Of a stretch of 30,600 nucleotides of DNA, positions 7,568-30,600 are shown piece after piece. Made by a program: the position numbers and the translations under genes. The notes beneath the pieces are model-generated. The model saw only the letters and a list, made by a program, of their open reading frames with translations, had not been told where the DNA came from and ran no database searches. Each line of letters opens with the position of its first letter. Position 1 is the first letter of the stretch. The stretch is from an uncultured Thermoprotei archaeon (lineage in GTDB: Archaea; Thermoproteota; Thermoprotei; Thermofilales; B15-G2), in the NCBI GenBank assembly GCA_965367815.1, contig CBDUKN010000027.1, positions 1-30,600 on the forward strand. Reading direction: 5' to 3'.

Positions 7568-7657
7568 ACACTAGACATCCCACTCGAAAGTATAAATAAT
7601 TTATTTACATCGGGAACGCAAACAGAAAATAATATAGTTTTCTCGAACAAAAATAAT

Positions 7658-10093
7658 ATGATGAATAGAATTACACTCGCATTCATACTAGCTGCAACAT
7701 CTCCTTTCATATTAGTATTTTCGGCTGAAGCCTTTTACTTAACGCTTCTAGTTGCATACATTCTAGCATTCCCGTTCCTATACACGCTACTTAAAGAAAA
7801 ACTAGTTGGGTACGAAATACCAGACTACAAGTACGTAGACTATATTTTCATGAGAAAAATACCTAAAGGAAAAACAATTGAATACGAAGTAGGAATAGTA
7901 CTTAAACTCACTACAACTGCTGGCGCACTTGAGAGAGTAAGCCACCTCAATTTTGCTGAAGAAGCCAATACAGTACTAGACGTTATTACATCTAAGAGCC
8001 CTACTATTGTCATTAAAGGCGGGACTCTAGACTACTACATAGTACTAACTCATAGAAGCAATAATCTACAAGAAGCAGTAGAGGCTCTCAAAAAGAAAGT
8101 AGCTTCGTTGAAAAGAGAACTACTCACATCATCATTCGAAGTAATACCCATTCGCTTCGAAGAATACTTGGAAATTTTTCCGTTTAAAGAAAAGAAAAAG
8201 GACTGGAAAAAAGCTGCACTAGCTGCACTACTGCCCCCCGTACTCTGGTTCATTAAGCTCTACTTCTTCTCAATACTAGCTTTCCTGCTAACGTACCCCG
8301 TCCTAGTAGAATTCATTAAGAAAAGAAATGAGAAGCTATACGATTTCCCGGGAACATGGTACTCTGTCGAAGAAATACACAGTGTAAAGTACACGCGTGC
8401 CGGACTATACATGTACACTCAAGTCATAAGAAATGCTATTTCATCTACTACAGCTGAAAACACGTTCATTGTAATCAAAGTAGAGCCAGCTCAAACAAAA
8501 GAACAAGCTGCACTAGAGAAAAGTGCTCAAAGAAAATACATCATAGGAGATATGTTCAATAAGCCCAAGACAATACTCGAGGCTTTAAGGGAACTAGAGA
8601 GAACACAAAGAAGATACGGGGACATTGAAGAAGCATTACTCAAAGTAAGCATATACACGAACAATAAGACAATAGCGAGGAAAATGAGCTCACTATTAGG
8701 CTTCTCTGTATCACTGCTACCAGTCAAAAGCCCTGTACTAAGCAAACTCTTCTATAAGAAAAGCGTACTAGAATACGACACAGGGCTAAGGTACTGCTAC
8801 ACACTAGATCTAGCATTCTTCTCACCATACCTCTGCAAGAGATACATGTGGGAAAAAGGTATCGTGTTGGGGACAGATGAGGGAGGAAACGTCGTACGCT
8901 TAAACTTAGCTGCACTACCTAATGCGCATGGAATATATGTTGGCGGCTCTGGTACAGGGAAATCGATAATGTTCAAGAATATTATCACTCAGCTATCACT
9001 GTACTATAATGCCAATTTCTGCATATTAGATATTACTGGAGAGTACCGTGATTTCATAGAGCTTTTCGGCGGAATAGTAGTAGACTGCACTAAACCATTC
9101 TTCTGCTTCAGGCACCTCTTGCTAAATCCCATTAAAAGAGAATATTTATTGGATGTGATAGCGGAAGTCTACAGGCTATCAGACATGCACAAAGCTATTT
9201 TACGCAAAATACTGAGCGAATCAAAGTCATTCACAGAAGCTGCGCAGAAACTCCCGCTTATTCTCAATGAGCTTGAAGCACCACTAAGAAGACTCGACGG
9301 TAACGTGCATGTAAGCGAGCTACTATCAAAAAACATTCCCTTCGTGATGTACTTCCGTAGAGAAGAAAGGAGAATAGCTGCACTACAGCTAATGCTACTA
9401 CTAGATGAAATAGAAGACTATTTCATGGCGAAAGGAATAGTACACGAGCCCCGCTTCTTCGTATTCATAGACGAGGCACACAACATACTAGATCGAGTAC
9501 CCGACAGAGTCTTACAGAAAATCAAAGAAAGCAGAAAATGGGGGTTAGCCGTAATCTGCTGTAGCCAAGAAGTAACGGCATTCAAAGAAAGGTTCTATGA
9601 AACAGTATACCACGTTGTAGCCCTGTCCCCGATGGCTAGAGCTCAGTTAAACTTACTTAAATCAAAATTCGACATAAGTTCACACGACGAAATATTCATC
9701 ACTACTGCTAGTCCCCGCGAAAAATGGTTCCCTGAAAAAGCATTGCTATTCATCGTAGGCTTTCTTTACCCTATTAGAGTCTACGTAAAGTTTACTGAGC
9801 TGGCGCTGAGAGAAAACTACACTAGAGCAATAGCAGCTGCACAAAAATACGGTGTTCCAGCTAAACTGCTGGCCGCAAAAATACTTGAAGTAGATGAAAG
9901 AAAGCTTGAAGAAATGTTAGAGAAATGTCAGTTAAGTGAGCTAGAGAAACACGGGCTATTTATTAAAGAAAAACTAACATTTACTCCGCTAGGCGCCGCG
10001 CTAATAGAGTATCGAAAAATTAGACCTAAGATTCTTCACGCATTCCTAAACTCTCTTCAAGTATCTTCAAGTACTCCTCGACACGCGAAATAG
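7658..10093 (+). CDS. VirB4/CedB-like membrane-anchored HerA/FtsK-superfamily ATPase
   Basis: Walker A GGSGTGKS, ILDITGEY, Walker B FIDEAH, ESRKWG...SQ arginine finger; N-terminal TM helices. Start moved to ATG 7658 to avoid overlap with the divergent gene. Confidence 0.88.
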   Translation: MMNRITLAFILAATSPFILVFSAEAFYLTLLVAYILAFPFLYTLLKEKLVGYEIPDYKYVDYIFMRKIPKGKTIEYEVGIVLKLTTTAGALERVSHLNFAEEANTVLDVITSKSPTIVIKGGTLDYYIVLTHRSNNLQEAVEALKKKVASLKRELLTSSFEVIPIRFEEYLEIFPFKEKKKDWKKAALAALLPPVLWFIKLYFFSILAFLLTYPVLVEFIKKRNEKLYDFPGTWYSVEEIHSVKYTRAGLYMYTQVIRNAISSTTAENTFIVIKVEPAQTKEQAALEKSAQRKYIIGDMFNKPKTILEALRELERTQRRYGDIEEALLKVSIYTNNKTIARKMSSLLGFSVSLLPVKSPVLSKLFYKKSVLEYDTGLRYCYTLDLAFFSPYLCKRYMWEKGIVLGTDEGGNVVRLNLAALPNAHGIYVGGSGTGKSIMFKNIITQLSLYYNANFCILDITGEYRDFIELFGGIVVDCTKPFFCFRHLLLNPIKREYLLDVIAEVYRLSDMHKAILRKILSESKSFTEAAQKLPLILNELEAPLRRLDGNVHVSELLSKNIPFVMYFRREERRIAALQLMLLLDEIEDYFMAKGIVHEPRFFVFIDEAHNILDRVPDRVLQKIKESRKWGLAVICCSQEVTAFKERFYETVYHVVALSPMARAQLNLLKSKFDISSHDEIFITTASPREKWFPEKALLFIVGFLYPIRVYVKFTELALRENYTRAIAAAQKYGVPAKLLAAKILEVDERKLEEMLEKCQLSELEKHGLFIKEKLTFTPLGAALIEYRKIRPKILHAFLNSLQVSSSTPRHAK

Positions 10094-13000
10094 CTTCCTC
10101 TATATCGCTTAAAACCTCGTGGAGCTCCTCTAACTTAATTTTCCTGTGTTCTGCTTCTCTAATCAAGCTCTGTACTTCGCTCTTCGCGTCCCTATACTTC
10201 CTCAAGGCGCCTGAGAGAAGCTCCATTTTATCACTAATACTCTTTTTCTCGAGCGCTTCTTCGACAAGCCTATCCGCTTCCTCTGTGAAGCGTGCCGTTG
10301 CATTCAATCTGTGCTCTACGCTACTCAAGAACTCTATTTTATCGCTGAGGTACTCGAAGTTAAGCATACTGAATGCTAAAGAAGCTACTTCTCTAACGAA
10401 AACATCTCTCTCATTAATGTATGCGTAGAGGTAGCTGTACTCGCTTTCACTCTGCATAAAGTAGTCTTCAGCTACAATAGAGTTAAGGAACTTTAATGCT
10501 TTCTCGAAGTCTTCCTCACTGTACTTATGTTTGTAGAGAAGCTCGACTACTTCCTCTAGCTTCGGGGGCTCAGAGAAAAGTGATGCCGTCGCCACAACTG
10601 CCTTAAAGTCCCTTAAATCAATATTGAGCATTTTCATAACAGTCTCCGCGAAATCAGTTACTTTCTCTCTGTCTTCAAGGTACTTTGCTGGAAGCAAGTG
10701 TATTCTATCGAGTGAGAGGTCTAGTTCATCAAGCATTCTAGCGGATCGGGCTATAGCGTTTATTAGTAAGAGTTCTTCGTCAAGTTCGACTCTATTAGCT
10801 TCGCTCCACTCTAGTACCGCTCTAGCGAACTCCCGTTTATCAGATATCATGTACAAGTATCTGGGAGGCTCTACTTCACGAATTAAAAGCGTTGCTGAAA
10901 CAATATTCAAGTACGATAAAGCGTACTGGTAAGCTAACTCTACGTCCCCTAGCTTCAGTGCAGCTCTAATAGCCTCTCTACTCGGTTCATCAGAGTAAGT
11001 TGAGGCAATAAACGCTACGAGGGCTTCTCCGCCACGCTCGAGAAAAACTCTAGCGTAGCTAACTCCACTCAAAACCATTTCTGCCGCGAGAACTTGCGAG
11101 GCTTTCAAGATATTCCTGTCTCCTGTCTGCAGAAACGCCCTATACAGCTCACTTGGATTCACTCCACTTAAACCAGCTTTCTTCAAGTACTTCCGCGCAA
11201 GCCTATCCGCCACCACACGCAAATACGGTAGATCATACTCGACTCTAGAGTAAGGGTCGTGGATAACCTTAAGCAATGCTTTTTTCGCAAAGTAAAGCGC
11301 AGACTTCTCCTCTATCTTCGATACAATAAGACCATAAGTCTTTCTCCTAACTCCGTAGGGGTATTTTTGCATAAAGTCCGCTAGTTTCTCGAGTTTTCTC
11401 GATCGAGTAACATCAGCTATAAGGTAGTAGAGTCCCGCTCTCTTAGAATACCTCGCTATCTTGTCTATTGTGAGCATCGAGAGTGCAGCTAGCTTAGCTA
11501 GTCTACGTGAAGGAAGCTTCTTCTCGTAGAAGTCTTTAAGGAGCTCGTACTTACGCCTAATATCTGCGTAAAGAATGTCACGCAAAGTAGTCTGTGTTGT
11601 CTCAGCTACTTTGCTATAGAACTTTAATCTAATTTTCGCTTTAATTGCTCTAAATAGGAGAGCAATAGGAGAGAGCCTCCGCGTAACTGCTCTAGCAGAA
11701 AAACTAGGTAGTGAAAGAATACTGTAGAAAAGCGTCGATGAGAAAAGACTACTAGTAAAACTCGGCGACCCCAGCATCCCCAGAATAAATATTACCGCTA
11801 GACTCCAGCCAATAAACATCAGCAAGACATTATAGAGTAGCTTGAATATACTGCCGAAAAACTCAATAAATCCTCTATACTGCATAATTTCACTAAAGTA
11901 CTGCCAGTAGTAATTGTAGTAGTACCATGCTGTGGCATTCCAAGGAATCTTCGCTCTAGGCACGATAGTCACTTCAACAACTACAAAATCTGTAGAGTTC
12001 ACAGTACCGTTCTGCGTCAACACAATATGTACTAGGTGACCGGGCGGCTGCACGCAAAAGAACTTAGGCTTATGTGCGTCAAGGAAATCTAGTAGCTCTT
12101 CATAGGACTCTGGTAGCTTAAAGCAAGTACGGTTCAAGTAAGCGTACGAAAAAGTACGGTTAAACCAAAGAACATAGTTCTTGTAGAGTTCTCTAAAGAA
12201 GCTTTCACCTGTCTGAGTAATATTTGTTGCAGACTCTACCCTAACTATATTATATGATATAGTTAAATTGCAGCTACTTGAACTATACTTCACTTTAATC
12301 AAACAGTCGCCGAAAACCCATATCTTTGCTTCAGTTTCCTCATACACTCTCATAGTAAACCTGTATTTTGCTCGAAGCGGCTTCTTTACTATAAGCGGAT
12401 CTATACACGTACAAAGACCCATACGCTTAACTTTACCGAAAGTAAACGCGTACACACCTGTCTCATTGTATAGTATATGAATACTTCTCACAACTACGCG
12501 GACACGCGTATACGGTCCACGATACACCAAGTCTCCATCCGTAACAGCATTAATGCCTGGTGAAGCCCCGGGTAGAATTAAGCCTAAGCCTCCTCTTACC
12601 CTAAAACAACGCTTTTTAACAGTAAAGTTATACCACATGAAGACAACTCTCTCGACACAGTAGCTACCTTCGGGCAAGACGACAAGACGCTTACCGTAGC
12701 CATTAAGCTGCACAACAAAGTAGCCCGTGTGATTCGCTATTATAGGCGGACAATAGTAACATGAAGTATTGCAACACGAAGTATTAAAACACGGCATACA
12801 TACACTCGTATTGAATTTCAAAACGACCAAAGCGTAAGGTAGAGGCTCTCCGCTTTCTGACACAACTTCAATTAAAGCCACGCCCCACGTCTGCGGAACC
12901 TCTATTTTAGGAACTCTGAGCTTGTATTCAGTTAAACTGTAGTTTATTGTATAAGGTAAAATGTACACGAATATTATTGTAAGCGAGAGAAACAGAAGAC

Positions 13001-13547
13001 CCATACTTCTAGTTTTTCGGAAAGGCATGGTACACGACATGCCTGCAATAAGCAGAGGAGAGTACTTGAGCGCGAGGCGCACTATAATAAGCAGTGTAAT
13101 CAAGATAGCAAGAACTTTGCCGAGTACTATAGTTAGTGTTTCGAGAATCTGGCTAATTACAGAAGCTACAATAGAGAACGCTACAAGAGCTGCAGCTAAT
13201 TTAGGGCTAATATGTGAAAAACTCGCAAGTATACTCGCCACTATTTCTGAAACAGTTAAACCAAAACTAGCTGTCGCAGAGCTACTAACCCAGTCCTGAA
13301 GACCCTTAACTGACGCCGACAAAGTCTCGTTAGCGTACTCTAAGCTAAAGTACTTGACTGGCACACCAGTATACTCGCTCACTAGAATAGCATTGCTGAA
13401 GATAAAAGCGATAAGCGTGAAGAATAGAGCTGCCACAATAGCTGTTAGACTCATGAAGGCTCTAGCTCTATCGTACATTAAGTAGAATATAAGTAAAATT
13501 AGCTCAATAACAATACTCGCTACACAAGCATAGACTAGTAGACTCAC
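10026..13547 (-). CDS. Large CedA/VirB6-like membrane protein with extracellular beta region and long cytoplasmic helical/coiled-coil tail
   Basis: N-terminal multi-TM region with MPFRKTRSMGLLFLSLTIIFVYILP (CedA-like PFR...G...LP), many N-x-S/T sequons, a second TM region near aa 560-620, and a coiled-coil C-terminus. Confidence 0.65.
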   Translation of the reverse strand: MSLLVYACVASIVIELILLIFYLMYDRARAFMSLTAIVAALFFTLIAFIFSNAILVSEYTGVPVKYFSLEYANETLSASVKGLQDWVSSSATASFGLTVSEIVASILASFSHISPKLAAALVAFSIVASVISQILETLTIVLGKVLAILITLLIIVRLALKYSPLLIAGMSCTMPFRKTRSMGLLFLSLTIIFVYILPYTINYSLTEYKLRVPKIEVPQTWGVALIEVVSESGEPLPYALVVLKFNTSVCMPCFNTSCCNTSCYYCPPIIANHTGYFVVQLNGYGKRLVVLPEGSYCVERVVFMWYNFTVKKRCFRVRGGLGLILPGASPGINAVTDGDLVYRGPYTRVRVVVRSIHILYNETGVYAFTFGKVKRMGLCTCIDPLIVKKPLRAKYRFTMRVYEETEAKIWVFGDCLIKVKYSSSSCNLTISYNIVRVESATNITQTGESFFRELYKNYVLWFNRTFSYAYLNRTCFKLPESYEELLDFLDAHKPKFFCVQPPGHLVHIVLTQNGTVNSTDFVVVEVTIVPRAKIPWNATAWYYYNYYWQYFSEIMQYRGFIEFFGSIFKLLYNVLLMFIGWSLAVIFILGMLGSPSFTSSLFSSTLFYSILSLPSFSARAVTRRLSPIALLFRAIKAKIRLKFYSKVAETTQTTLRDILYADIRRKYELLKDFYEKKLPSRRLAKLAALSMLTIDKIARYSKRAGLYYLIADVTRSRKLEKLADFMQKYPYGVRRKTYGLIVSKIEEKSALYFAKKALLKVIHDPYSRVEYDLPYLRVVADRLARKYLKKAGLSGVNPSELYRAFLQTGDRNILKASQVLAAEMVLSGVSYARVFLERGGEALVAFIASTYSDEPSREAIRAALKLGDVELAYQYALSYLNIVSATLLIREVEPPRYLYMISDKREFARAVLEWSEANRVELDEELLLINAIARSARMLDELDLSLDRIHLLPAKYLEDREKVTDFAETVMKMLNIDLRDFKAVVATASLFSEPPKLEEVVELLYKHKYSEEDFEKALKFLNSIVAEDYFMQSESEYSYLYAYINERDVFVREVASLAFSMLNFEYLSDKIEFLSSVEHRLNATARFTEEADRLVEEALEKKSISDKMELLSGALRKYRDAKSEVQSLIREAEHRKIKLEELHEVLSDIEEAISRVEEYLKILEESLGMREES

Positions 13548-15435: not shown

Positions 15436-15666
15436 CTATATTTTACAAGCTAATTCTTTTCCTTTTTCTGTTATGACTATAAAGGATATGTAGTCTGTAT
15501 GCTTATGCTGAACTGTTCTAACTAGCCCTTTTCTGCAAGGACTCTCTATTCTCGCGAGAGGCTTGCTTGGTAATGCTTTAATTAGTGTTAGTAGAGGCAA
15601 GAGAAGTATTAGCAGTATTATGGATAAGAGAATTTTCCTATACTTCACATTAATCTTATATTCCAT
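15436..15666 (-). pseudogene. Chimeric ORF: signal peptide and N-terminus of a paralog of the 27396 protein fused to the C-terminal half of a wHTH
   Basis: RKILLSIILLILL...ALPSKPLARIESP matches RKIPLLIIILILL...AQPSEPLARIESP (27396 ORF); KGLVRTVQHKHTDY...ITEKGK matches KGLVRIISHKYTDY...LTKKGK (16873 ORF). Confidence 0.65.
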
Positions 15667-15724
15667 GAGATAAATATATCTCAAAAATAATTTAAATATA
15701 GCGTTAATAGAATGTTTTGGAAAA

Positions 15725-16792
15725 CTATAGAGTTGACTCAATGATTTCAGAAACTATTTCTTCTACTGTTTTGCCTTCTTTTTCAGCCTTTTCCTCTAAC
15801 TTAATGTAAGTTGCTTTAGTAATTTTTACTTTTAATTCAACCGTACTATATCTCTCTTTCAAGAAACTATCTACTGTTTGCTTCCAGTCTTTTCCTTCTC
15901 TAATAGCTTCTCTAACACGCTTAGCCATTTCACGGACCTCCGTTTGTCTAAGCGAGTGCTCGTGGACGACTTTAAGCAGATCTCTTAGTACACTGTTTCT
16001 TTCGCTTCTATCAATAACATTTCTCTTAACCATCGAGTCTACTAAACTATAAACTATCATCAAGTGAGAAAACGGTATCTTGCTTCTCAGCTCCTCTAGC
16101 TCTCTTTCAAGTTCTTCTTCCTCTATTTCAACACTAACTTCTTTCTCTTCTACAACTTTCTTGGCTACAGGAACTTCCTCGACTTTCTTTTCAGCTACTC
16201 CCTTTCTTTCTACAGAAACTTCAGGAACTTTTTCCTCGATAGTCTTTTCAACAACCTTTTGACGCCATCTACCAGCCTTTTTCTCTAAAGTTAAGCCTAA
16301 TTCCTTAGCAGCCAAATATATGTCTATCAGTCTCTTAATCTCCATTACTGCAACAGCTATCTCCTCTGCTATCTCTTCCTCAGACATCCCAAATACTTCT
16401 TTTAATAGCTTCACGCCGTCAGCTTGTTCTTCAGGCGATATCGATTTCCTGTGAATATTTTCTACTAGTGAAAGTAGAGCTGCTTCACGGTCATCTACTT
16501 CAACAACAAGACACGGTGCCTTGCCAAATCTAACTGGGTCTTCTTTAGCTAATTCAGATAAAGCTTTTCTTCGCCTTTCACCCACAATAACCTCATACCT
16601 ATTACCTATCTTCCTAACAATGAGCGGCTGGAGTAAGCCTCTGCGTCTAATGCTTTCTTTTAAACTCTCTAGGTCACCATAGTCTTTCCTAATATTAAAT
16701 TTCGATTTAATGAGCCTGCCTACTGGAATAAGCTCTAGCCTCCCCCCTCTGCTCAAAATTTTTTCCCACAAACTCATACGCTTATAACTCAA
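15725..16792 (-). CDS. parB: ParB/Srx-domain protein with HTH and C-terminal RHH-like dimerisation domain
   Basis: LKESIRRRGLLQPLIVR...YEVIVGERRRKA (GxxRxxA), SLVENIHRKSISPEEQA; C-terminal VELKVKITKATYIKLEEKAEKEGKTVEEIV. Confidence 0.88.
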   Translation of the reverse strand: MSYKRMSLWEKILSRGGRLELIPVGRLIKSKFNIRKDYGDLESLKESIRRRGLLQPLIVRKIGNRYEVIVGERRRKALSELAKEDPVRFGKAPCLVVEVDDREAALLSLVENIHRKSISPEEQADGVKLLKEVFGMSEEEIAEEIAVAVMEIKRLIDIYLAAKELGLTLEKKAGRWRQKVVEKTIEEKVPEVSVERKGVAEKKVEEVPVAKKVVEEKEVSVEIEEEELERELEELRSKIPFSHLMIVYSLVDSMVKRNVIDRSERNSVLRDLLKVVHEHSLRQTEVREMAKRVREAIREGKDWKQTVDSFLKERYSTVELKVKITKATYIKLEEKAEKEGKTVEEIVSEIIESTL

Positions 16793-18133: not shown

Positions 18134-18685
18134 TTATTTAAGAATTTTTTCAATAGCTTTCTTTATTTCTTCTTCTACTTCTTTTGGATTCCATTCTATT
18201 TTGATTTTTCTTGAGTACTTTCTACCACTCCATCCTAAGATTAAATAGGCTTCTGGTGAAACAGAAAAGCATTTGTGGCATAGCCATGCGTATATCTGTG
18301 TTTGGGTGATGCTGTATTTGTCTGCTATAGAATAGGACTTGAATTCATAGACTTCAACTGGTGTGCTCCTGACAAATTTAATGAGGTCTGGTACACCGTA
18401 GACAATGTATTTCTTTGAATTAACTACGATTTCGGCTGCTAGTGGAAAAGGTAAAGCTACTTCATCTTCCTGGAAAACAACATAAGGGTCCAGACTCCAT
18501 AAGACTTCGTGAGCCTCTCTTCCTACCTTAGCTCCATTAAGTCTTCCATGACTTCTAGGACTGGCAATTATCCTAGCTACTTCTGTGACATGAAAAGCTT
18601 TCTTAAGTCTACGGAGCAATTGTGCTTCACTATATAGCTCTAGTATTTCTTTTATCTTAGTGTATTTACTTAAGTTCTGCATCAT
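18134..18685 (-). CDS. PD-(D/E)XK (RecB/Cas4-like) nuclease without the 4-Cys Fe-S motif
   Basis: GREAH, YGVPDLI, VYEFKS, QTQIYAW motifs. Confidence 0.85.
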   Translation of the reverse strand: MMQNLSKYTKIKEILELYSEAQLLRRLKKAFHVTEVARIIASPRSHGRLNGAKVGREAHEVLWSLDPYVVFQEDEVALPFPLAAEIVVNSKKYIVYGVPDLIKFVRSTPVEVYEFKSYSIADKYSITQTQIYAWLCHKCFSVSPEAYLILGWSGRKYSRKIKIEWNPKEVEEEIKKAIEKILK

Positions 18686-19655
18686 GTAACCCGTCTTCTT
18701 TTATTACAAAAGCCACAGGAGTAGGGGGGATTCTCGGGGAGTCAAAGCACTCTAGTATCCTTAAGTTTCCTTTACTTTTTCTAATAAAGAATCTGTGGTT
18801 AAAGTGGTGTGCGACTATGTGTCCTCCACAGGCTTTCACAGTCGGCCCGAAGAAAACCCCGGGGTTTGCGAGAACCTGATTTGTCGCCACAATAGCTACT
18901 CCAAATGTTTTCTGGATCTTATCTAGTTCATTTAAAATAAAGTTAAGGTCTTGTTGTCTCTCGGCAAGCTTTCCTCGACCCCTATACTCGGCTCTATGAA
19001 GCTTAATAACTGAGTCAAGTACCACTAGCTTGACTTTTTCTCTCAAAACTATGTCGGGTAGCTCGTTTTGAACAAAGAAACGCAAATCTGATACCTTAAT
19101 TGGCTTAACTAAAATAATGTTCTTTAGTGCTTCTTTAGGCTCTAAGCCAAAACGCTCAGCAATTCTCGCTACTCTACTGGGCGTAAATGTTCCTTCAGTA
19201 TCAATATACACTGCTTTAGCCTGCAGACCTCCTCTATCGAGCGGAAGCTGCACTGTTACACATAGCTGGTGACATATCTGAGTCTTACCTGCACCATACT
19301 CGCCTACAAGCTCATGCGACTCAGAAACTTTTACCCCTCCTCCCAAAAGCTCGTCTAAAGCCTTAACTCCTGTCGTAAAACACTCTAGCTCATCGAATAC
19401 TTGACTATACTCTAGTGCCGACTGAATATGGCTATAGCCATGCTCATACATCATCTTCCTTGCCAACGCCACTAGTCTAGCAGCTGTATCTTCACCGAAC
19501 CCTAAGTCTACGAGGTCATGTTCGTTAAAGAGGAAAAGCTTTCTAATATCATAGATGCCTGCTTTCTTTAACCTAGTTATAGTAGTAGACTTTACCCCGT
19601 ATTCTTTAAGCACTTCAACAGGAATTTCTTCCATCAAAAATAATTCAATAAACAA
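18666..19655 (-). CDS. radA: RadA/Rad51-family recombinase
   Basis: N-terminal HhH domain, TTGVKALDELLGGG, Walker A GEYGAGKT, QICHQLCVTVQLP, YIDTEGTF, LVVLDS, RAEYRGRGKLAERQQ, TNQV. Confidence 0.95.
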   Translation of the reverse strand: MFIELFLMEEIPVEVLKEYGVKSTTITRLKKAGIYDIRKLFLFNEHDLVDLGFGEDTAARLVALARKMMYEHGYSHIQSALEYSQVFDELECFTTGVKALDELLGGGVKVSESHELVGEYGAGKTQICHQLCVTVQLPLDRGGLQAKAVYIDTEGTFTPSRVARIAERFGLEPKEALKNIILVKPIKVSDLRFFVQNELPDIVLREKVKLVVLDSVIKLHRAEYRGRGKLAERQQDLNFILNELDKIQKTFGVAIVATNQVLANPGVFFGPTVKACGGHIVAHHFNHRFFIRKSKGNLRILECFDSPRIPPTPVAFVIKEDGLHDAELK

Positions 19656-22425: not shown

Positions 22426-22776
22426 TTACCCTCTCTCAACGAAAGCAGTAGGCGTATTGATTACGACTTCTACCTTCATCAAGGTATTGTTTCCTAGTAT
22501 TCTAAATGTGTAAGCGTAGCCTAGCCTCAGTTTAATAGGATTACCTATAGTATATGTTCTAGTAATAGTTCCATTAGGGAGAATTAATGTAACTCTGATG
22601 AACGCGTTTGTTCTAATGGACTCGCCAGCTGCCAGTAGATCTGCGGCTTGTTCCGCCAACACCCACGCATGTATACTGTAGTTTTCGACACGAGCCTTAG
22701 CGTTAGCGTAAACATACATTGTCGCTAAGAAAAAGAGACAGAAGGCGATTATTACTGCAAGCATATCGAATTTCAT
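22426..22776 (-). CDS. Putative minor pilin / pilus-associated protein
   Basis: N-terminal hydrophobic helix followed by a beta-rich domain with NxS/T sequons; directly after the TadC-like gene. Confidence 0.55.
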   Translation of the reverse strand: MKFDMLAVIIAFCLFFLATMYVYANAKARVENYSIHAWVLAEQAADLLAAGESIRTNAFIRVTLILPNGTITRTYTIGNPIKLRLGYAYTFRILGNNTLMKVEVVINTPTAFVERG

Positions 22777-22779
22777 AGC

Positions 22780-24033
22780 CTACACCTTCAATTTGGGTAT
22801 TAGCTGTGGAGCAATATAGTTCAGCGTAATATTGTATATGAGTGCTGATACCAGTAAGAACAATGGTAAGTACATGAGTATATAGGAGGGATTGGCGTCT
22901 CTGAAACAAGTTGCTATAAGTGCGAGTGAAGCCGAAATAGTCGTTAGCGAGAAATCGATAATAGTTCTTATAGTAGCTAAATTTTCTCGGGTAGGGAACT
23001 CGAAGCCGGAGCGCTTCATAATATCTCCGAGCGAGTACCCTAGCTCACTAAGATTCTCTAGAGTAGCATAGGATATAGCGTACATTGATGCAGCTAAAGC
23101 AGTCATAAAGAGACAGGCACACAGGATCACTAGTCCTCTTTTCCTCATACTGAGGAAAAGTCTCCTGTACTCTTTAACGAAGTTCGTTAACTTGGACACG
23201 CAGTCAAAGTACTTTTCGCCACCGCTCTTCAGTAGAATAAAGAGTGCCGCTAAGGCGTATCTTATGAAGCCCCAGAATTCATTTGAGAGCAGTTTACGGG
23301 GATTCCTTATACCCGCCAACGTAATATCCTTTGTCGTACACATTACTGAGAGAATGTCTTCTCCTTTCTTGAGAGAATCAAGTAGTTTCTCCTGATACCT
23401 GAACAATATTAATGCTGACGGAATAGTAGCGATGAACAGTGCTACTGTAGCGCTGTGTAGAATAAAGTAGAGAGGTACGGCTAGAGCGAGAGGTGCTAAA
23501 GCATATGCTAGGATTCTATTTTCTACTGGGAGATGTAGGTGTTGTGGTATAAGAATTACTGTGATAAGAGAACCTATAGCGGCGAAGAGCATTGAGAGAA
23601 CTGTAACTATAATTCCTGACTCCGGTGCAGTAAACGCGTAGATAAGATTCAGTACTAGCGGAAACAGAATAGCTACTGTGACAACAGCAGTTAAAACAAA
23701 GCCAGCTGTCCACGAAGTACTCTCAACTTTTTCTCTTAAGTCGTCGAGAAACCTTGACGCAAGAAAATTCAAGTTCTCTCTGCTACCCGTACTAGTGCTA
23801 ATCCACGCCTCCTTATATAACTCAATAAACTCCTTCGAGCAACCCTTGCGTTTCAAAACTGTATCCACAGTGCTTGGCCTTATAGGGTGGTCTGGTATCC
23901 ACTTTAGGCCAAGAAGATTTCTTAGCTCAATGAGCGTGGAAAGAGGCGGTAAGGGAGACGAGGAAATGGCTATGCTTAAGAAGTACGCTGATATCTTACT
24001 CTCAGACCCTACCTTAAACTTCTCGAATACCAC
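22780..24033 (-). CDS. Type IV pilus membrane platform protein (TadC/ArlJ/UpsF-like)
   Basis: Two repeats of a cytoplasmic helical segment (STSTGS..., KSGG...) followed by TM bundles; lies between pilin genes. Confidence 0.7.
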   Translation of the reverse strand: MVFEKFKVGSESKISAYFLSIAISSSPLPPLSTLIELRNLLGLKWIPDHPIRPSTVDTVLKRKGCSKEFIELYKEAWISTSTGSRENLNFLASRFLDDLREKVESTSWTAGFVLTAVVTVAILFPLVLNLIYAFTAPESGIIVTVLSMLFAAIGSLITVILIPQHLHLPVENRILAYALAPLALAVPLYFILHSATVALFIATIPSALILFRYQEKLLDSLKKGEDILSVMCTTKDITLAGIRNPRKLLSNEFWGFIRYALAALFILLKSGGEKYFDCVSKLTNFVKEYRRLFLSMRKRGLVILCACLFMTALAASMYAISYATLENLSELGYSLGDIMKRSGFEFPTRENLATIRTIIDFSLTTISASLALIATCFRDANPSYILMYLPLFLLVSALIYNITLNYIAPQLIPKLKV

Positions 24034-24064: not shown

Positions 24065-24547
24065 TTATCCCCGCTCAACAGTAGCACTGAAAGAAATCGC
24101 TTCATGGCCCGGTAATGTTATCTGACCTTTGACAACGTTAGCGTTCCCTGGGTCATATCCGCCGCCGAGAGTCAATTCTATGGTCGCCGTACCGCCGTTT
24201 GCTGGTATTGTTATGTTTGTTGGATCAACATCGGTAATTGTTACGATGCCTTTATTGAAAATTGTGAGATGAATATTTCCTGTTGTAAGTGTTGTAGTAT
24301 AAGCACCACCTCCCGAGTTTTGTATGTTGATAGTTAAGTGCCATGTTCCAGTATCGTCCGCCCACAGCCACGCTTGTACTACTGATAACCGCGGCTTTTT
24401 TATGCTAGAGTTAATGAAGCCAAAAACCCACCAGAAGAGAATAAATGTTGCCGCAATACCTAAGATTATTATTAAAATTAGTACTAGTACTGTAGAAACT
24501 CCTTTATTGTTGAGCGCTAGTTTTTTAATTATTTTCTTTCTCATCAA
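24065..24547 (-). CDS. Archaeal type IV pilin
   Basis: Class III signal peptide KKLALNNKG|VSTVLVLILIIILGIAAT; LTINIQNSG motif. Confidence 0.88.
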   Translation of the reverse strand: MMRKKIIKKLALNNKGVSTVLVLILIIILGIAATFILFWWVFGFINSSIKKPRLSVVQAWLWADDTGTWHLTINIQNSGGGAYTTTLTTGNIHLTIFNKGIVTITDVDPTNITIPANGGTATIELTLGGGYDPGNANVVKGQITLPGHEAISFSATVERG

Positions 24548-24628: not shown

Positions 24629-25483
24629 GTGATTGAAATGACTAAAGTTATTGGATTAACAAGTGGTCCTAGAGGAGGAGTTGGCAAGACACTTATTTCT
24701 AGTGTGGTTTCTGTATTGATGAATCTTCGTGAAATTCCTACGCTTCTTGTTGACGTGGGAGGAGGAGCGACAACTGTATTTCAAGTGACATTCAGAAAAA
24801 AGACTATTACACCGCCATATATCCACGATTTCGCTGTAAAAGAAAAAGTCGACCTCGGAGACTATATTTGTTCAGGGAATATTAGCGAAATTTTTGGGCA
24901 GAAGAAAGAAGAAAAGAAAAGGAGATTCTTTGGTAGAAAGAAAAGAGAAGAAAAGAAGGAGAAAGAAATAATGACGTACCTAATGCCGTGTCAATTCGGG
25001 CGACCACTGCAGCCTAATGAAATACCTCTTTTTGTAAGTAAAATGCCTCTACTTTACCAGTTCTTTGAAGCACTTATAATAGATTTTCCAGCAATGGCTC
25101 ACATAGAGCCGTGGAAACCACTAATAGATTCCCTCGACTTGCAGCTAATAGTAGTTACTCCAGACTTGTCGACAGTATATGATGTACTTAACGGCAGCAT
25201 TCTAACCGACAACACAGTGTTTATAGTAAATAAGTTTAATGAAAGCGACGAGCATATTAGCATTTTAAAGCTACTTCGCGAAGAATTCGGTAGAGAAATT
25301 TTCGTTATTCCAGCTGACCCATATTTAGCTAATTTTGCTCAATACGGACTCTTTGCTGTCCCAGAGCCAAAAGGAAAAAGTGTTTCATTTAATGAAATAG
25401 TGAATAAGAGAAAGAAGCCTGATGCCGGGCGGGCATTATTCGACTTAACTTTCTTTATTATAGACTTTATCTCCAGTGAGTAA
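24629..25483 (+). CDS. MinD/ParA-family ATPase (pilus-associated)
   Basis: Deviant Walker A SGPRGGVGKT, LLVDV, IIDFPA, VVTPD, VNK, IPAD. Confidence 0.85.
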   Translation: MIEMTKVIGLTSGPRGGVGKTLISSVVSVLMNLREIPTLLVDVGGGATTVFQVTFRKKTITPPYIHDFAVKEKVDLGDYICSGNISEIFGQKKEEKKRRFFGRKKREEKKEKEIMTYLMPCQFGRPLQPNEIPLFVSKMPLLYQFFEALIIDFPAMAHIEPWKPLIDSLDLQLIVVTPDLSTVYDVLNGSILTDNTVFIVNKFNESDEHISILKLLREEFGREIFVIPADPYLANFAQYGLFAVPEPKGKSVSFNEIVNKRKKPDAGRALFDLTFFIIDFISSE

Positions 25484-25515: not shown

Positions 25516-25905
25516 GTGGAGAGAGGAAAATTACCTTTATCTATCTTAAAGAAAAAGAAGGAAGAAGAAAAACAAGTATGGCCTGAAGTAAAGTTTCCTA
25601 CTCCTTTAAAACCACCCGAGGAAAAACCCTCACCTCCTCCACCACCTTTATCTCCTCCACCCGAAGTAGCTACTCCGCCCACTACGCCTCCTTCTATGCT
25701 TACAGCAGAAGACGTGGTCGCAGTTATTAAAGACCTAGGTGTAGCAGACCAAGTTAAGAAGAGATATGATGAACTTTCAGCAGAAGTCGCTCAGCTTCAG
25801 AAAGAAATAGACGAACTGAAAAAACAGTTAGCTGAGAGGGAAGAGAGATTAAAAGAGCTTTTAGATAAGAAAAATAGATTTGAAGCAGTAATGCGCCACC
25901 TATAA
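25516..25905 (+). CDS. Proline-rich linker plus coiled-coil protein
   Basis: PSPPPPPLSPPPEVATPP followed by a heptad LSAEVAQLQKEIDELKKQL segment. Confidence 0.8.
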   Translation: MERGKLPLSILKKKKEEEKQVWPEVKFPTPLKPPEEKPSPPPPPLSPPPEVATPPTTPPSMLTAEDVVAVIKDLGVADQVKKRYDELSAEVAQLQKEIDELKKQLAEREERLKELLDKKNRFEAVMRHL

Positions 25906-25907
25906 CT

Positions 25908-27257
25908 ATGACGAGGTTTTTCGAAGAATTTTTGAGAGAAGCAGAGAAGAGGGAAAGTAGGAGAAAGAAAGAGCAGAAAAAGAAAACGGAGACAAGAGAA
26001 GAGAAAGTAAAGAAGGTGAGGAGGAAAATTAAGAAAAAGCCTATAGCTTCAAGAAAACTTGAAGTAAAGCTTCCAGCTAAACCTAAGCTAAGTTTTCTTA
26101 AAAGAAAAAAGTCTGTACCTAAGCCTCAGCTAATACAGCAGCAGTATAAGTACGACTATGTTGAGCGCTGCAATGGATACACGTATGCTTTCGATCTCAT
26201 GAATAGATTACTCTACGTGTGGATAGGGAAAGATAGAAGAGAAATAGAGGAGAGCACATGGGGTTGTCTAGAAGCATTAAGAAAGTTAGCGACTATAAGC
26301 GAGATTCATGTAGTCGGAGACTACGTCTCAGTTCTCGACGACCGTTTCGGGCAGTTTACAGTACGCTTTGCTGACTACAAGTTCACTAAAGAGGAAGCAG
26401 ACTTTACTGTAAACAACATAGCTATAGCAGCTAAACTACACTTAACTGAAAGAACCCCCGTTGTAGTAGGAGACCTTGAGGGTTTCCGTGTTCAGTGTAA
26501 GAAAGACCTTGTAGGCAAGACTACGCAGCTAGTAGCAGTGCGTTTGAGAAAAATACCAGACTTAGTCGAGCTTCTGAGAGAAAGAGTTGCAGCTAAACTA
26601 CTTACATGTGTACTTACACGCCTTCCTACTGTCTTTATTGGTGAGCCGGGTAGCGGTAAAACTACTGCGCTTAACTCTACTTTACTGAAACTTCTAGCCA
26701 TATTCCCTAAGCTAAATATCAGTGTTGTTGAAACTAGCGCAGAGCTAAGATTCCCTACAGGTTTCTCAGTACACCGTACTGTATGCACTGGCTACATTTC
26801 TACTGAAGAAGCATTGAGAAAAGCGTTCACTACTGAGCGCCCAGATATCCTTGTGCTAGGAGAGCTGACAGACGAAGTCGACATATGGATGAACTTTGTT
26901 AGATCTGGCCAAGCCTGCCTAACTACTTTTCATAGCCCTGACCCCCCGACATTTGTCCGCCACATTTCAATGAAAATGAATGCCTACGCGCTTGACTTCT
27001 TCAAGTTGATAGTGCATTGTTCTAGAACAACTGACAGCCTTGGAAGAAGATACTACCGCATTAATGCAGCATACATTATTGACTCACAGAATAAGCCACA
27101 TTTACTAACAGAGCTAAGTGAAGAAGAGTTCCTTAAAATACTTGAAGAAGACTACGGAGAAAGAACACCAGTAGTCTCTAGCGGAAACAGATTATTCGAT
27201 AAGAAGTCACTATACATGTATATTAAAGCAAATATAAGTAAAACAATAAGTATCTAA
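25908..27257 (+). CDS. Type IV pilus assembly ATPase (TadA/CpaF/UpsE/VirB11-like)
   Basis: Walker A GEPGSGKTT, Asp box VETSAEL, Walker B ERPDILVLGE, His box TTFH; Lys/Glu-rich N-terminus. Confidence 0.9.
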   Translation: MTRFFEEFLREAEKRESRRKKEQKKKTETREEKVKKVRRKIKKKPIASRKLEVKLPAKPKLSFLKRKKSVPKPQLIQQQYKYDYVERCNGYTYAFDLMNRLLYVWIGKDRREIEESTWGCLEALRKLATISEIHVVGDYVSVLDDRFGQFTVRFADYKFTKEEADFTVNNIAIAAKLHLTERTPVVVGDLEGFRVQCKKDLVGKTTQLVAVRLRKIPDLVELLRERVAAKLLTCVLTRLPTVFIGEPGSGKTTALNSTLLKLLAIFPKLNISVVETSAELRFPTGFSVHRTVCTGYISTEEALRKAFTTERPDILVLGELTDEVDIWMNFVRSGQACLTTFHSPDPPTFVRHISMKMNAYALDFFKLIVHCSRTTDSLGRRYYRINAAYIIDSQNKPHLLTELSEEEFLKILEEDYGERTPVVSSGNRLFDKKSLYMYIKANISKTISI

Positions 27258-27395: not shown

Positions 27396-30300
27396 ATGAG
27401 ATACATATCTCTAAGGAAAATTCCTCTACTCATCATTATTCTAATACTTCTCATAAACTTTACAGTAGTTGTCGAGGCTCAGCCCAGCGAACCTCTCGCC
27501 CGCATTGAGAGTCCTTGGGCTGTAAGGGAACTGTACTACGTGAATGGTTCGCTTTGGTGGAGGCATGTTTTGAAAAAGTACTTAGTGTGGCATGGTACAC
27601 TTGAATTATGGTATCCTGTCTACGCTAATGTAAGCGACACAATAACAATATACGTTACATACAATTGTATGCATTTACATAAAGATAGAATATGGATTGG
27701 GTATTCTTATCATGCTTTTAGAAACCGTGTAATGGAGAATACTGTATGCAGTATTTGCTCACTAGAACTAGTCAGTACACTTGGCATACATAAAGGAAAA
27801 TTCACAGTACAGTTAAATGAATCAGGAATATTAGTACTACATATAGGCATAGGTGTAGTAGAGGAAGGTAAACTATATGCAGATACTTTCTTAAGAATAT
27901 TCGCTACTATTGTAGGTTATTCACCCGACCTCAGTTTCGGTTTACAGAACTATACGAGTATTGTTTTAGGGTTTAGGAGGGTTGAGAGGCTTTTAGCTGA
28001 GAAAGAGGAGCTTCAATTGAAGCTTAGTGAGCTTAATGCTTCTAGAGAAAAGCTTCTCAAGGAAATTGCTGGGCTTGAAGAGAAGGTTAAGCAGCTTAAC
28101 TCTACTCTAGTTGAGCTTAAAGCGAATTTAAGTAAGTTGAAGGAAGTTTACTTTAATAAGAGTAGTGAAGTAAGTAAGCTGGAAAGTAAGGTAAATGAAG
28201 TTAGTGAAGAAAATAAGACGCTTGCAGCTGAAATAGAGAGAACGCGTTTCACAGCAATACTACTTTACGTGGCTTCAGCAATAGTCGTCGTATTAACACT
28301 TGTCTACAGGAAACGTAAACTAGGCTACATAATCTCACTAATGTTGATTCTACTAACACCCATTATAATGTATTCTACTACAGAGTCGAAAGAAACTATT
28401 ACTTTCGTGTACTATAGTAATGGGCTTAAAGTACAGGTAATTTATCCCAAAGAATTCAAGCTACCATTAAAAATTACAGTAAAGTTTCCTTACCCAATTA
28501 AAGAATGGTGGAAAGGAGCAGATAAGTTATGTAGAATGGATAAGACTGGAGTAATGTTAGAGCACTGGAGGACGTACGATGAGTTTGAGTTTGAGAGTAA
28601 TGATGCTGAAGTAACTGATACAGTTTACTCTATATACAGTAAGACTGATGCATTTGACTACAGAATACCTTTGACAAGAGAATGCTCATACTTAGTTAAA
28701 ATCTTCCATAATAAAGGTACGCTTAAGTCATATAAGTATAATAAAGTTTACTGGGTTTTTGAGGGCTCTCACGTAGACTTACTTTTGCTCTACAGTTTCT
28801 CTGGAGACTTTTTCCACGTATTTAAAGAGATATTTGCGAGTGATTTAGTTGGTGTAAAGCAGTATGAGAGCGATGTGAGTGTTTTAGAGAAGACATTAAG
28901 TTCTCTTAATGCTAGTGTACAGCAGCTTTTAATGCGTAAACAGCAGCTTAGTACCTTAGTCAAGAGTCTTGAGAACCAGATAGTTGATGGTGAAGGCAAG
29001 ATAAGCGAGTATAAGGCTCTTATTGATGACTTAGACTCAAAGAAAGCTGAGCTTAATCAACAACTCAAAAGTCTTATTGAAGAAAATTCTAGGCTTAAGG
29101 CTGAGGAAGGTTTCTGGAGTACTGTTTACCAGGTTTCAGTAGTAGTGTTAGTATTGTCTATTATTATTTCAGTACTTATAGCCTATAGGACAGCTAGATA
29201 CGCAGTCCTCCTATTAATCCTACTACTCTCACTAGTAACGCTTCCCATTAAAGTAAATGCAGGAGAAGTAGTCTTAGCTGATAAAAAAGACCCATTCAAC
29301 ATAACAAAAACCATAGAAATCAAATCAGACTCTACTAATCCGAGTGGTAATGCTAGTGTTAGTGTTAGTGTTGATGTTTTGGCTGGTGCTTGTCTTGCTG
29401 AAAACTATACTAGTGTTCTTTCGGGAGTTCTGGTTAAAGGCTTCGCATGGTGTAAAATTGAGTGCGGTTTGTTTGATTTACAGGGTTCTCGGGAAATTCT
29501 TTACCATGGTGTTGACGTGGATAGTGTTCCCAAGTATCCGTTCTATGGGATTCACAGCTGTCTTACTCTAGGTGAGTCTAGTGTTTCGGCAGCTGCGTTA
29601 GGTAAAATGTGGTACAGGAAGTCTAATAGTATCTATGAGCTGTGCTACAGGAATAGTAGCGGAGAGTATAGAGTAGTCTACGATAAGGAGGCTTTCTACG
29701 AGACTACTAGCTCGTATTTTGAGGCAAGTGTCTATGTTTATAGAGAATATAAAGCTATCTATGGTAGAGTTTATTGGTGTGGTGTAGCTGAAATAGTTAA
29801 TAGTTTCTACAATAAGCCAATTAGAATTAAAATAACTGTCAAAACAGACTCCTACTATAGGGGAGAGTGGACTGTAAGTGGCTTTGCTTGGCTAAAAGTA
29901 TGGTACGAGACAAGTGGCGGCGGTTCAGTAGAGAAACTTCGTTTTTATGCGATATTGGCTGATAGTGGTAGGAGTCTTTCGGTTCCAGTGGTTTATCGTT
30001 GGCTTACTGTTCCTGAGTGGTTTAGTGGTGTAACGCCTTTCACTACTGTAAAAGAAGCTGGCTATGTTTACGTTAATGTTCCTTTATATGTTAAGGTGAG
30101 TGGCAGAGTCTATAGGTTTAGGGGGTATGCTGGCGGCGGAATTGTTTCAACATACTATAATGAGACTTATGCTAAACTCGATGTAAGGAGTACCGATGTA
30201 GTTGTAGCCGTATATGGAGACTTTACTACAGGCGAAATCTACAGTACTCACTATGTGCCTCTTTTTAGAGAAGCATATAGTAGTAGTACTGTATTCAAGT

Positions 30301-30600
30301 TTATTCAGTTTATTTCTCCAGCAAACCACTATAAAATGAGTAGTATTGACGAGTACTTTGAGTGGGCTGTAGCAGTAAACTGGGGTGAGTATGTTTTCCG
30401 CACATGGGTAATTCTACCAGACTTGTCTACAGTTCAAGGAAATATCGAAGAAATCGAAGTACACGACTACCCCGGTACACAGTCTTTCCACGTAGAAGCA
30501 TCAGTAATAAGTGTTGACTCAAGTAAAACTTACGTAGCGGTATACGAGTATAGGCCGGGTTATCCGTATAAGTTTGAGTGTAACGCTGTACTGGAGAATG
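27396..30600 (+). CDS. Large secreted/membrane surface (poly)protein, at least 1068 aa, runs off the window end
   Basis: Hand translation is open from ATG 27396 to the end: MRYISLRKIPLLIIILILLINFTVVVEA|QPSEPLAR..., two coiled-coil + TM-hairpin units, then a Tyr/Val/Ser-rich beta region with many NxS/T sequons. Not in the ORF track because there is no stop. Confidence 0.9.
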   Translation, partial: MRYISLRKIPLLIIILILLINFTVVVEAQPSEPLARIESPWAVRELYYVNGSLWWRHVLKKYLVWHGTLELWYPVYANVSDTITIYVTYNCMHLHKDRIWIGYSYHAFRNRVMENTVCSICSLELVSTLGIHKGKFTVQLNESGILVLHIGIGVVEEGKLYADTFLRIFATIVGYSPDLSFGLQNYTSIVLGFRRVERLLAEKEELQLKLSELNASREKLLKEIAGLEEKVKQLNSTLVELKANLSKLKEVYFNKSSEVSKLESKVNEVSEENKTLAAEIERTRFTAILLYVASAIVVVLTLVYRKRKLGYIISLMLILLTPIIMYSTTESKETITFVYYSNGLKVQVIYPKEFKLPLKITVKFPYPIKEWWKGADKLCRMDKTGVMLEHWRTYDEFEFESNDAEVTDTVYSIYSKTDAFDYRIPLTRECSYLVKIFHNKGTLKSYKYNKVYWVFEGSHVDLLLLYSFSGDFFHVFKEIFASDLVGVKQYESDVSVLEKTLSSLNASVQQLLMRKQQLSTLVKSLENQIVDGEGKISEYKALIDDLDSKKAELNQQLKSLIEENSRLKAEEGFWSTVYQVSVVVLVLSIIISVLIAYRTARYAVLLLILLLSLVTLPIKVNAGEVVLADKKDPFNITKTIEIKSDSTNPSGNASVSVSVDVLAGACLAENYTSVLSGVLVKGFAWCKIECGLFDLQGSREILYHGVDVDSVPKYPFYGIHSCLTLGESSVSAAALGKMWYRKSNSIYELCYRNSSGEYRVVYDKEAFYETTSSYFEASVYVYREYKAIYGRVYWCGVAEIVNSFYNKPIRIKITVKTDSYYRGEWTVSGFAWLKVWYETSGGGSVEKLRFYAILADSGRSLSVPVVYRWLTVPEWFSGVTPFTTVKEAGYVYVNVPLYVKVSGRVYRFRGYAGGGIVSTYYNETYAKLDVRSTDVVVAVYGDFTTGEIYSTHYVPLFREAYSSSTVFKFIQFISPANHYKMSSIDEYFEWAVAVNWGEYVFRTWVILPDLSTVQGNIEEIEVHDYPGTQSFHVEASVISVDSSKTYVAVYEYRPGYPYKFECNAVLEN

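Follow-up and report, generated by a model that had tools for sequence, protein, structure and literature searches.

Polyproteins that the host signal peptidase cuts are characteristic of enveloped viruses: the envelope glycoprotein precursors of flaviviruses and bunyaviruses, in which stop-transfer anchors alternate with internal signals in one open reading frame (ORF), are cut by the host signal peptidase in the eukaryotic endoplasmic reticulum. The Bradyrhizobium FbcH cytochrome b/c1 precursor is said to be split as well, at one internal signal peptide, in which case prokaryotes too would have access to the mechanism. Here we describe an ORF of an uncultured Thermoprotei archaeon that lies at the end of contig CBDUKN010000027.1 (contig C27 of genome G000 in our numbering; the entire 30.6-kb contig was analysed and is called the window). 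Like the viral precursors, this ORF alternates anchors with internal signal-like segments, which divide it into three modules, and it would deliver several surface proteins in a fixed ratio. It differs from them in being a gene of an archaeal cell for which no link to viral sequences was found and whose cleavage is putative, and from FbcH in that the latter belongs to a respiratory complex and has a single internal signal. The explanation that we favour, with about even confidence, is that the gene encodes a signal-peptidase-processed polyprotein, whose products would be two stalked anchors of SlaB-like design and one large, free protein associated with the pilus.

In the Sulfolobales S-layer, SlaB is described as a trimeric coiled-coil stalk that carries a separate canopy protein. 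Modules 1 and 2 of the window gene each have its parts in the same order, namely a putative signal peptide, a putative beta head, a long C-terminal coiled coil, a single anchor and a short basic tail, but their heads are unrelated to SlaB in sequence, and here two different stalk units and a large protein share a single ORF at a pilus-like locus. As a preprint describes it, the tetrabrachion S-layer protein of Staphylothermus marinus is a single polypeptide made up of a large outer part and a coiled-coil stalk; unlike the window gene it has, in that description, one anchor, one stalk and no internal signal peptides. In the part of Makarova et al. (2016; PMC4858521) that concerns Thermoproteales pilus loci, these loci hold a diverged ATPase and TadC, a MinD-family ATPase, small helical proteins and pilins, together with two large proteins from separate genes, one of them C-terminally anchored and the other with a signal peptide. 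The locus in the window matches that account in its make-up; unlike the loci described there, where the large proteins come from separate genes, it has its large protein fused behind two stalk modules that are confined to one genus.

Layout of the ORF and conservation of its frame

The ORF comprises 1068 open codons and then reaches the contig end without a stop (Table 1). Its hydropathy profile has five hydrophobic segments and no more: the N-terminal signal and two pairs, amino acids (aa) 285-304 and 309-329 with RKRK between them, and aa 572-597 and 602-618 with RTAR between them. The layout and coordinates given in the original prediction, which had been made from the letters of the window, all proved exact on recomputation. 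Among the 950 ORFs of at least 300 aa in the genome, a tight hydrophobic hairpin whose loop is basic and which is flanked by two non-membrane domains of 120 aa or more is found in 3, which are the window gene, its paralogue on contig C22 and an unrelated ORF on contig C17; the layout is rarer than chance would give. The C17 ORF (3195-4697, minus strand; 500 aa) is of comparable plan, with a signal peptide, about 260 aa, a basic-loop hydrophobic hairpin, about 165 aa and a C-terminal anchor. The 1068 aa of the window protein contain 16 sequons, of which N50 (10/11 sequences), N235 (9/9) and N505 (9/9) are conserved, and from these sequons alone the surface regions may be glycosylated. In module 3, Cys666 and Cys795 are conserved in 5/5 sequences.

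The frame was found again in paralogues and in metagenomes. The C22 paralogue is 50% identical over aa 6-890 and is likewise broken by a contig end, and a paralogue on contig C21, complete at 583 aa, has modules 1 and 2 only and ends in a genuine stop. Three-module ORFs with stops are present in metagenome loci (1514 aa and 1580 aa), to which P0008 adds one of 1449 aa; the other metagenome ORFs of the family are one of at least 1175 aa that is cut by its contig, two of two modules (583 and 604 aa) and a broken one. Full-length relatives have no membrane segment beyond those within the portion present in the window. The single frame is kept at 27-55% identity across five diverged lineages and in independent assemblies, and contigs from three other sequencing runs pass the junctions in front of modules 2 and 3 without stops, junction 2 being spanned in runs X2 and X3 and junction 3 in X1, X2 and X3. 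Since five lineages keep the frame and independent contigs bridge both junctions, the ORF is not an assembly error, and the hidden stop codons by which the original prediction might have been undone were not seen. The runs that contain the window stretch are labelled as hydrothermal-vent and sediment metagenomes. ATG, GTG and TTG are all missing from both basic loops; separate translation of the modules was therefore rejected, and modules 2 and 3 can be produced only within one chain.

Irregular copies were also observed. One X2 contig (depth 5.3) is one base short at position 28927, in coiled coil 2, and has C>A at 28926, where runs X1 and X3 match the window sequence (28926-28927). The closest relative of the window gene (L015, 2567-4460; 76% identity) is a broken copy, frameshifted by +1 in head 2 and stopped 13 codons past the V-N-A/S of the third signal; it is without module 3 and may be a decaying gene or an assembly error. 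Two stretches of the window ORF, aa 851-950 and 1051-1068 (about 29946-30245 and 30546-30599), are 100% identical to the C22 paralogue, although identity to the C22-type gene is otherwise about 55%, which suggests recent gene conversion between the two. The genes on C27 and C22, and the copy in another assembly (P0002), all break within these stretches. The 3' ends of the C27 and C22 genes are missing because the contigs break where the paralogues are identical; their 3' halves, which were looked for in the genome assembly, were not assembled.

The family does not extend beyond one genus of uncultured Thermoprotei: among 120 genomes of the class it is present in 2 (E <= 1e-10), both from the window's own genus. 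A search of 5.8 billion proteins with the window protein returned 3 matches, and a profile search of 1.84 billion representatives returned 7 clusters at E <= 1e-30 and 231 matches at E <= 0.001, those beyond the 7 clusters being coiled-coil matches. P0012-P0017, which are stronger, repeat-rich profile matches, were set aside as unrelated coiled-coil or repeat proteins. Pfam, NCBIfam and PHROGs gave only coiled-coil noise with the window protein, and phage and plasmid collections gave no match to the family.

Internal signal-like segments and their possible cleavage

In the explanation that we favour, Sec would thread the precursor into the membrane and type I signal peptidase would cut it behind all three signal peptides, the N-terminal one and the two internal ones. 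Each internal signal would follow a stop-transfer anchor and a basic cytoplasmic loop of 3-8 residues, the loop doubling as the tail of the anchor and the n-region of the next signal. The first product would consist of head 1, an 88-residue coiled-coil stalk and a C-terminal anchor, the second of head 2, an 86-residue stalk and a C-terminal anchor, and the third would be a free beta-rich glycoprotein of about 900 aa that, being anchor-free, would be released. The two stalks would pair in parallel, level at the membrane, into a SlaB-like stalk of about 13 nm, and the fusion would ensure a 1:1:1 stoichiometry and assembly at one translocon.

The lengths of the breaker-free hydrophobic cores were compared between segment types in up to 9 family sequences. 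The cores of the N-terminal signal peptides had a median of 13 residues (n=9). Those of segment 2 measured 9-13 residues (median 12) and were accompanied by 1-3 prolines in 9/9 sequences, segment 2 of one relative reading VIVFLILIFPPLLF, while those of segment 3 measured 11-19 residues (n=6) with 0-1 proline. Anchor cores had medians of 16 and 18 residues and were proline-free in 8/9 and 9/9 sequences. With a core this short and proline in every sequence, segment 2 is signal-like and would be too short for a stable membrane helix. Segment 3 ends in V-N-A, I-R-A, L-L-A, V-V-A, K-S-A and V-N-A, so that alanine stands at -1 in 6/6 and V, I, L or K at -3. The site pattern at junction 2 is looser, [MVIL]-Y-[ST] and similar, and less canonical. 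The genome contains one archaeal signal peptidase I gene (95.6 bits; cut-off 51.85). Class III (prepilin) cleavage in the loops was rejected, a glycine before the hydrophobic stretch being present only in some lineages.

In these alignments the module edges are gene edges elsewhere. The two-module paralogues end right after anchor 2, the alignment of this anchor with SlaB runs to the last residues of the latter, VYR, and the weak matches of the large profile search include stand-alone proteins made of a head, a coiled coil, an anchor and a basic tail, with other heads. The C-terminal half of module 3 has homologous and syntenic stand-alone counterparts of about 860-1020 aa. A 999-aa protein of G015 (locus L054), from another family of the order, is 38% identical to this half in L014 (E 4e-56) and 33% identical in P0003 (E 2e-52), with a profile E of 8.6e-97, and the 1020-aa P0161 is 41% identical to it; weaker relatives measure 861-1009 aa. 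Matches to this half are present in 8 of the 41 genomes of the order, in frames of 560-1136 aa, and G000 and G001 show none because their 3' halves are unassembled. Homologs encoded as separate genes, a check proposed with the original prediction, were thus found for the C-terminal half of module 3. Stand-alone relatives with whole N-termini begin with ordinary signal peptides (e.g. ...ATLVKA/QEQ and ...GAHA/C) and are otherwise free of hydrophobic segments. In the operon, the three-module gene takes the place of two genes, one for a 476-aa protein and one for a secreted protein of about 1000 aa, and segment 3 would be the retained signal peptide of the latter. The 446 aa of module 3 that lie in the window (aa 623-1068) have no detectable stand-alone relative, and the best ESM Atlas score for module 3, 0.77, is within noise. 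A stand-alone module 3 among shorter proteins was rejected: all 5 matches are cut-off fragments, 4 of them labelled partial at the source and the fifth lying on a 1351-base contig.

The geometry of the stalks bears on junction 2. Coiled coil 1 is gapless at 88 residues in 8/8 relatives and coiled coil 2 at 86 in 7/7. In the window protein neither changes its heptad register along its length, and no Pro or Gly is conserved in either; each stalk would be about 13 nm long. The end of coiled coil 2 that is far from the membrane carries head 2, the N-terminus of which lies at most 8 residues past segment 2. An upright stalk of this length is incompatible with a head whose start is held at the membrane by so few residues, and the tether would therefore have to be cut. 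Charge pairing between the stalks was scored as g-e' pairs in a parallel-dimer model, at 13 in-phase offsets in 8 sequences, and compared with 2000 shuffles. The best pairing was obtained at the offset that places both helix ends level at the membrane anchors (positive in 8/8, sum 30), and 0/2000 shuffled coiled coils matched it (mean -0.6, standard deviation 6.6), a result that is a hint and not a probability, the test assuming a dimer and the 8 sequences being kin. These data are consistent with the stalks probably pairing in parallel at a membrane-level register. Modules 1 and 2 as duplicates of each other were rejected, their blastp similarity being confined to the coiled coil and their heads giving an hhalign probability of 0.2%. 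Head 1 has no relative in Pfam, PDB or ESM Atlas (best Atlas score 0.78, within noise), a PDB sequence search gave no match to head 1 or head 2, and neither head has relatives beyond the genus among the 120 class genomes and the pilus-like loci compared.

Several points weigh against processing at both internal sites and against the assembly proposed from it. The case for cleavage is made from sequence arguments and not from protein-level observation, as are the head folds, the continuity of the helices and the pairing of the stalks, the charge test having the limits already given. The cores of segment 3, at up to 19 residues, are compatible with an uncleaved signal anchor, and module 3 would lose its sole tether if cut. 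The homology of module 3 to separate proteins covers only its C-terminal half, beyond the window, and heads 1 and 2 are without relatives outside the genus. The two-module paralogues lie away from pilus genes, so that the stalk pair can work without module 3. Finally, we know of no archaeal precedent for a signal-peptidase polyprotein, and the literature, in agreement with the original prediction, yielded none: no paper joining internal signal peptide, polyprotein and archaea was found, and the cases that were found are mainly viral and eukaryotic.

The alternatives are taken here in order of decreasing plausibility. It is doubtful, but the best placed of them, that no internal cut is made and that the gene encodes a multi-pass protein which, once its N-terminal signal peptide is lost, stays whole; its three ectodomains would be joined by two tight hairpins, which make up its four membrane segments, and it would act as a membrane-bound scaffold of the pilus-like machine. 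An uncleaved state is the default for prokaryotic hydrophobic hairpins with basic loops; the topology obeys the positive-inside rule, module 3 would be kept tethered, and the longest segment 3 cores and the want of an archaeal precedent are in its favour too. This is difficult to reconcile with the proline-bearing cores of segment 2, which are too short to span the membrane stably, with the alanine kept at -1 in 6/6 sequences at junction 3, with the module 3 relatives being free secreted proteins, and with the unbroken coiled coil of 86 residues that separates head 2 from anchor 2 and that conflicts with a membrane-held start of head 2.

Cleavage at exactly one internal site, most likely junction 3, is in our view unlikely. 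The large protein would then be released and modules 1 and 2 would stay linked by their hairpin, in keeping with their being fused in every lineage of the family, the two-module paralogues included. Junction 3 is the clearest site (V-x-A) and the one with stand-alone relatives, and the sites at junction 2 are less canonical; a cut at junction 2 as well is nevertheless favoured by the geometry of the stalk and by segment 2, whose core is short and accompanied by proline. Taken on its own, at least one internal cut is likely, and the chances of both being made seem to us evenly balanced. The polyprotein reading put forward in the original prediction thus gained indirect support, from the signal-like segments, the agreement of module and gene edges, the stand-alone kin of module 3 and the signal peptidase I gene. 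The part of it that expected several stalked, membrane-anchored proteins applies to modules 1 and 2 but not to module 3, which is anchor-free in full-length relatives.

The pilus-like locus and the role of the products

The gene directly upstream encodes an ATPase whose best solved relatives are FlaI and PilB, and the genes before it include, in divergent orientation, those for a pilin-like protein and a polytopic membrane protein (Table 1). The polytopic protein had no Pfam match to TadC/T2SSF (PF00482) at E <= 5 and no PDB match, and hhalign gave it a probability of about 1% against both T2SSF genes of the genome; it may be a very diverged or a new platform protein. The polytopic and 116-aa genes accompany 4/4 three-module lineages and the ATPase 3/4. 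None of these pilus-like genes lies near the two-module paralogues, and the neighbour gene of the C21 paralogue is not an ATPase.

The ATPase family is present in 33 of the 120 genomes of the class. Ten ATPase loci (L054-L063), from nine of those 33 genomes, were compared, and at 8/10 the ATPase stands in a conserved cluster with a MinD-like ATPase, a pilin of about 135 aa (K/R-G-G-V-P-P), a polytopic protein of about 400 aa (invariant SPLPPL[ST]T) and a protein of about 110 aa; the MinD-like ATPase had no detectable match in L057. In G015 the operon runs MinD-like ATPase, ATPase and proteins of 476, 999, 179, 117, 220 and 121 aa. The window DNA ends inside module 3, and the small genes downstream were read in L012 and L014, where four small, N-terminally hydrophobic proteins follow that are homologous to the four of G015 and in the same order. 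One group of these small proteins carries a G-Q-x-L-x-L-A motif, as in class III signals. From its gene content, the locus is a type-IV-pilus-like operon conserved across the order. By analogy with these loci, the large third product is probably an adhesin or priming protein that acts together with the four minor-pilin-like proteins, since it is the counterpart of a secreted protein and four minor-pilin-like genes follow it. With slightly less than even confidence, we propose that a single translation product would be cut at both internal signals, that the two different stalk subunits would form a hetero-coiled-coil anchor, and that the free adhesin would be docked on it or handed to the pilus.

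SlaB (PDB 8QOX chain B) was the only solved chain matched by the family profile at E <= 0.001 (E 1.6e-8), and all profile matches among solved structures were to the SlaB coiled coil, to other coiled-coil proteins and to two antibody chains. The NCBIfam SlaB model NF040788 gave 33.9 bits over aa 494-595, its cut-off being 700, and 29.2 and 22.8 bits on the two stalks; below the cut-off it also scores in 8/14 control genomes, bacteria among them. The match is to the coiled coil and anchor only (34-36 bits vs 700), and from these comparisons what the gene shares with SlaB is the design and not the family. The profile of the family, which covers module 3 as well, matched no SlaA among solved structures, a set in which the presence of SlaA is not established. 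At the level of sequence, no fusexin was matched at E <= 0.001 in the profile search of solved chains.

Another function altogether seems improbable to us. The products might form an S-layer set of the SlaB-SlaB-SlaA type, for which the SlaB matches speak, or a mating-pair adhesin or fusogen of the conjugation-like neighbours, which comprise a VirB4/CedB-like ATPase, ParB and an extra RadA in the window, ParB and RadA standing beside the relative in L014 too. The SlaB match, however, is limited to the coiled coil and anchor, in a model that matches bacteria also, and the narrow spread of the family makes an S-layer role unlikely: unlike a main S-layer, it is absent from 118 of the 120 class genomes. 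The S-layer proteins that a preprint proposes for Thermofilales and for further lineages of Thermoproteota are Ig-rich, membership of the window organism in these lineages not being established. Against a role in conjugation, a copy of the VirB4-like gene is missing from the C22 locus, and pilus-like genes accompany all four three-module lineages; nor did phage, plasmid or PHROGs collections give a match beyond the coiled coil. The fusogen or S-layer role suggested in the original prediction is the less likely one, the type-IV-pilus-like operon found across the order pointing instead to a pilus-associated surface complex. An artefact, in the form of an assembly or frameshift fusion of separate genes or of a decaying gene, has next to no chance of being correct, for although the L015 copy is frameshifted with an early stop, one X2 contig lacks a base and contigs break inside the gene, the same frame is found in five lineages at 27-55% identity and other runs bridge the junctions unchanged.

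Further genes of the window were recorded. The VirB4/CedB/HerA-like ATPase (7433-10093, plus strand) adjoins a 1173-aa ORF (10026-13547, minus strand) that has no family library match, and neither has a paralogue in the genome. The extra RadA paralogue (18666-19655, minus strand) scores 241 bits, vs 317 for the best copy (C4), and the ParB_N gene (15725-16792, minus strand) is the only one of the genome; a ParB and RadA pair also adjoins the family member in L014, where the intact 1580-aa family gene comes directly after ParB. Just downstream of ParB in the window lies a 101-aa ORF (15436-15741, minus strand), of which about 43 residues are identical to a signal peptide and first motif of the L014/P0004 type and the rest diverges; it appears to be what is left of a second, truncated paralogue. 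A transposase-like ORF stands at the contig start (3-761, minus strand), with copies of 50-66% identity on six other contigs.

Table 1. Parts of the three-module gene, followed by its pilus-like neighbours in the window
Feature	Coordinates	Strand	Remarks
Three-module precursor gene	27396..30599	+	1068 aa; 3' end lost with the contig; full-length kin 1449-1580 aa
N-terminal Sec-type signal peptide, aa 1-28	27396..27479	+	...VVVEA/Q; core 10 residues
Head domain 1, aa 29-195	27480..27980	+	holds IESPWA.RELYY.NGS.WW.H, the most conserved motif of the family
Coiled coil 1, aa 196-283	27981..28244	+	88 residues; single heptad register; conserved sequon N235
Module 1 membrane anchor, aa 285-304	28248..28307	+	20 residues; proline-free
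Cytoplasmic basic loop RKRK, aa 305-308	28308..28319	+	without start codon
Internal signal-peptide-like segment 2, aa 309-331	28320..28388	+	core 13 residues, Pro next, then ...MYS/TTES
Head domain 2, aa 332-486	28389..28853	+	conserved R.DKTG and Cys430
Coiled coil 2, aa 487-572	28854..29111	+	86 residues; single register; conserved sequon N505
Module 2 membrane anchor, to aa 597	29112..29186	+	core 18 residues, proline-free; aligns with the SlaB transmembrane end
Cytoplasmic basic loop RTAR (within YRTARY)	29187..29198	+	without start codon
Internal signal-peptide-like segment 3, aa 602-622	29199..29261	+	ends P-I-K-V-N-A/G
Module 3, first 446 aa (aa 623-1068)	29262..30599	+	about 900 aa and anchor-free in full-length kin
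FlaI/PilB-type secretion ATPase, directly upstream	25908..27257	+	PF00437 39.5 bits vs cut-off 24.9
Small Pro-rich coiled-coil protein	25516..25905	+	no export signal apparent; conserved beside the ATPase
MinD/ParA-like ATPase	24629..25483	+	kept in the cluster
Pilin-like protein	24065..24547	-	class-III-type N-terminus ...NNKG/VSTV...; weak Pilin_N match, E 0.015
Polytopic membrane protein, candidate platform	22780..24033	-	417 aa; motif SPLPPLST; conserved in the cluster
Small N-terminally anchored protein	22426..22776	-	116 aa; conserved in the cluster

Possible consequences for archaeal surface assembly

What is new here is the fusion of pilus accessory proteins and SlaB-like stalks in a viral-style polyprotein layout. 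The reach of the finding is limited to a family of one uncultured genus of hydrothermal sediments that is known from sequence alone. If the cuts were confirmed, this would be expected to be the first archaeal, cellular polyprotein processed by signal peptidase, and the archaeal Sec system and signal peptidase would then be able to handle internal signals. Gene fusion would fix the subunit ratio of a surface complex in place of stoichiometry control at the level of the operon, and it would then be clear that tight hydrophobic hairpins should not always be annotated as two membrane helices. The gene would also link the accessory proteins of type IV pilus-like machines in archaea, which are poorly understood, with a stalk of new design.

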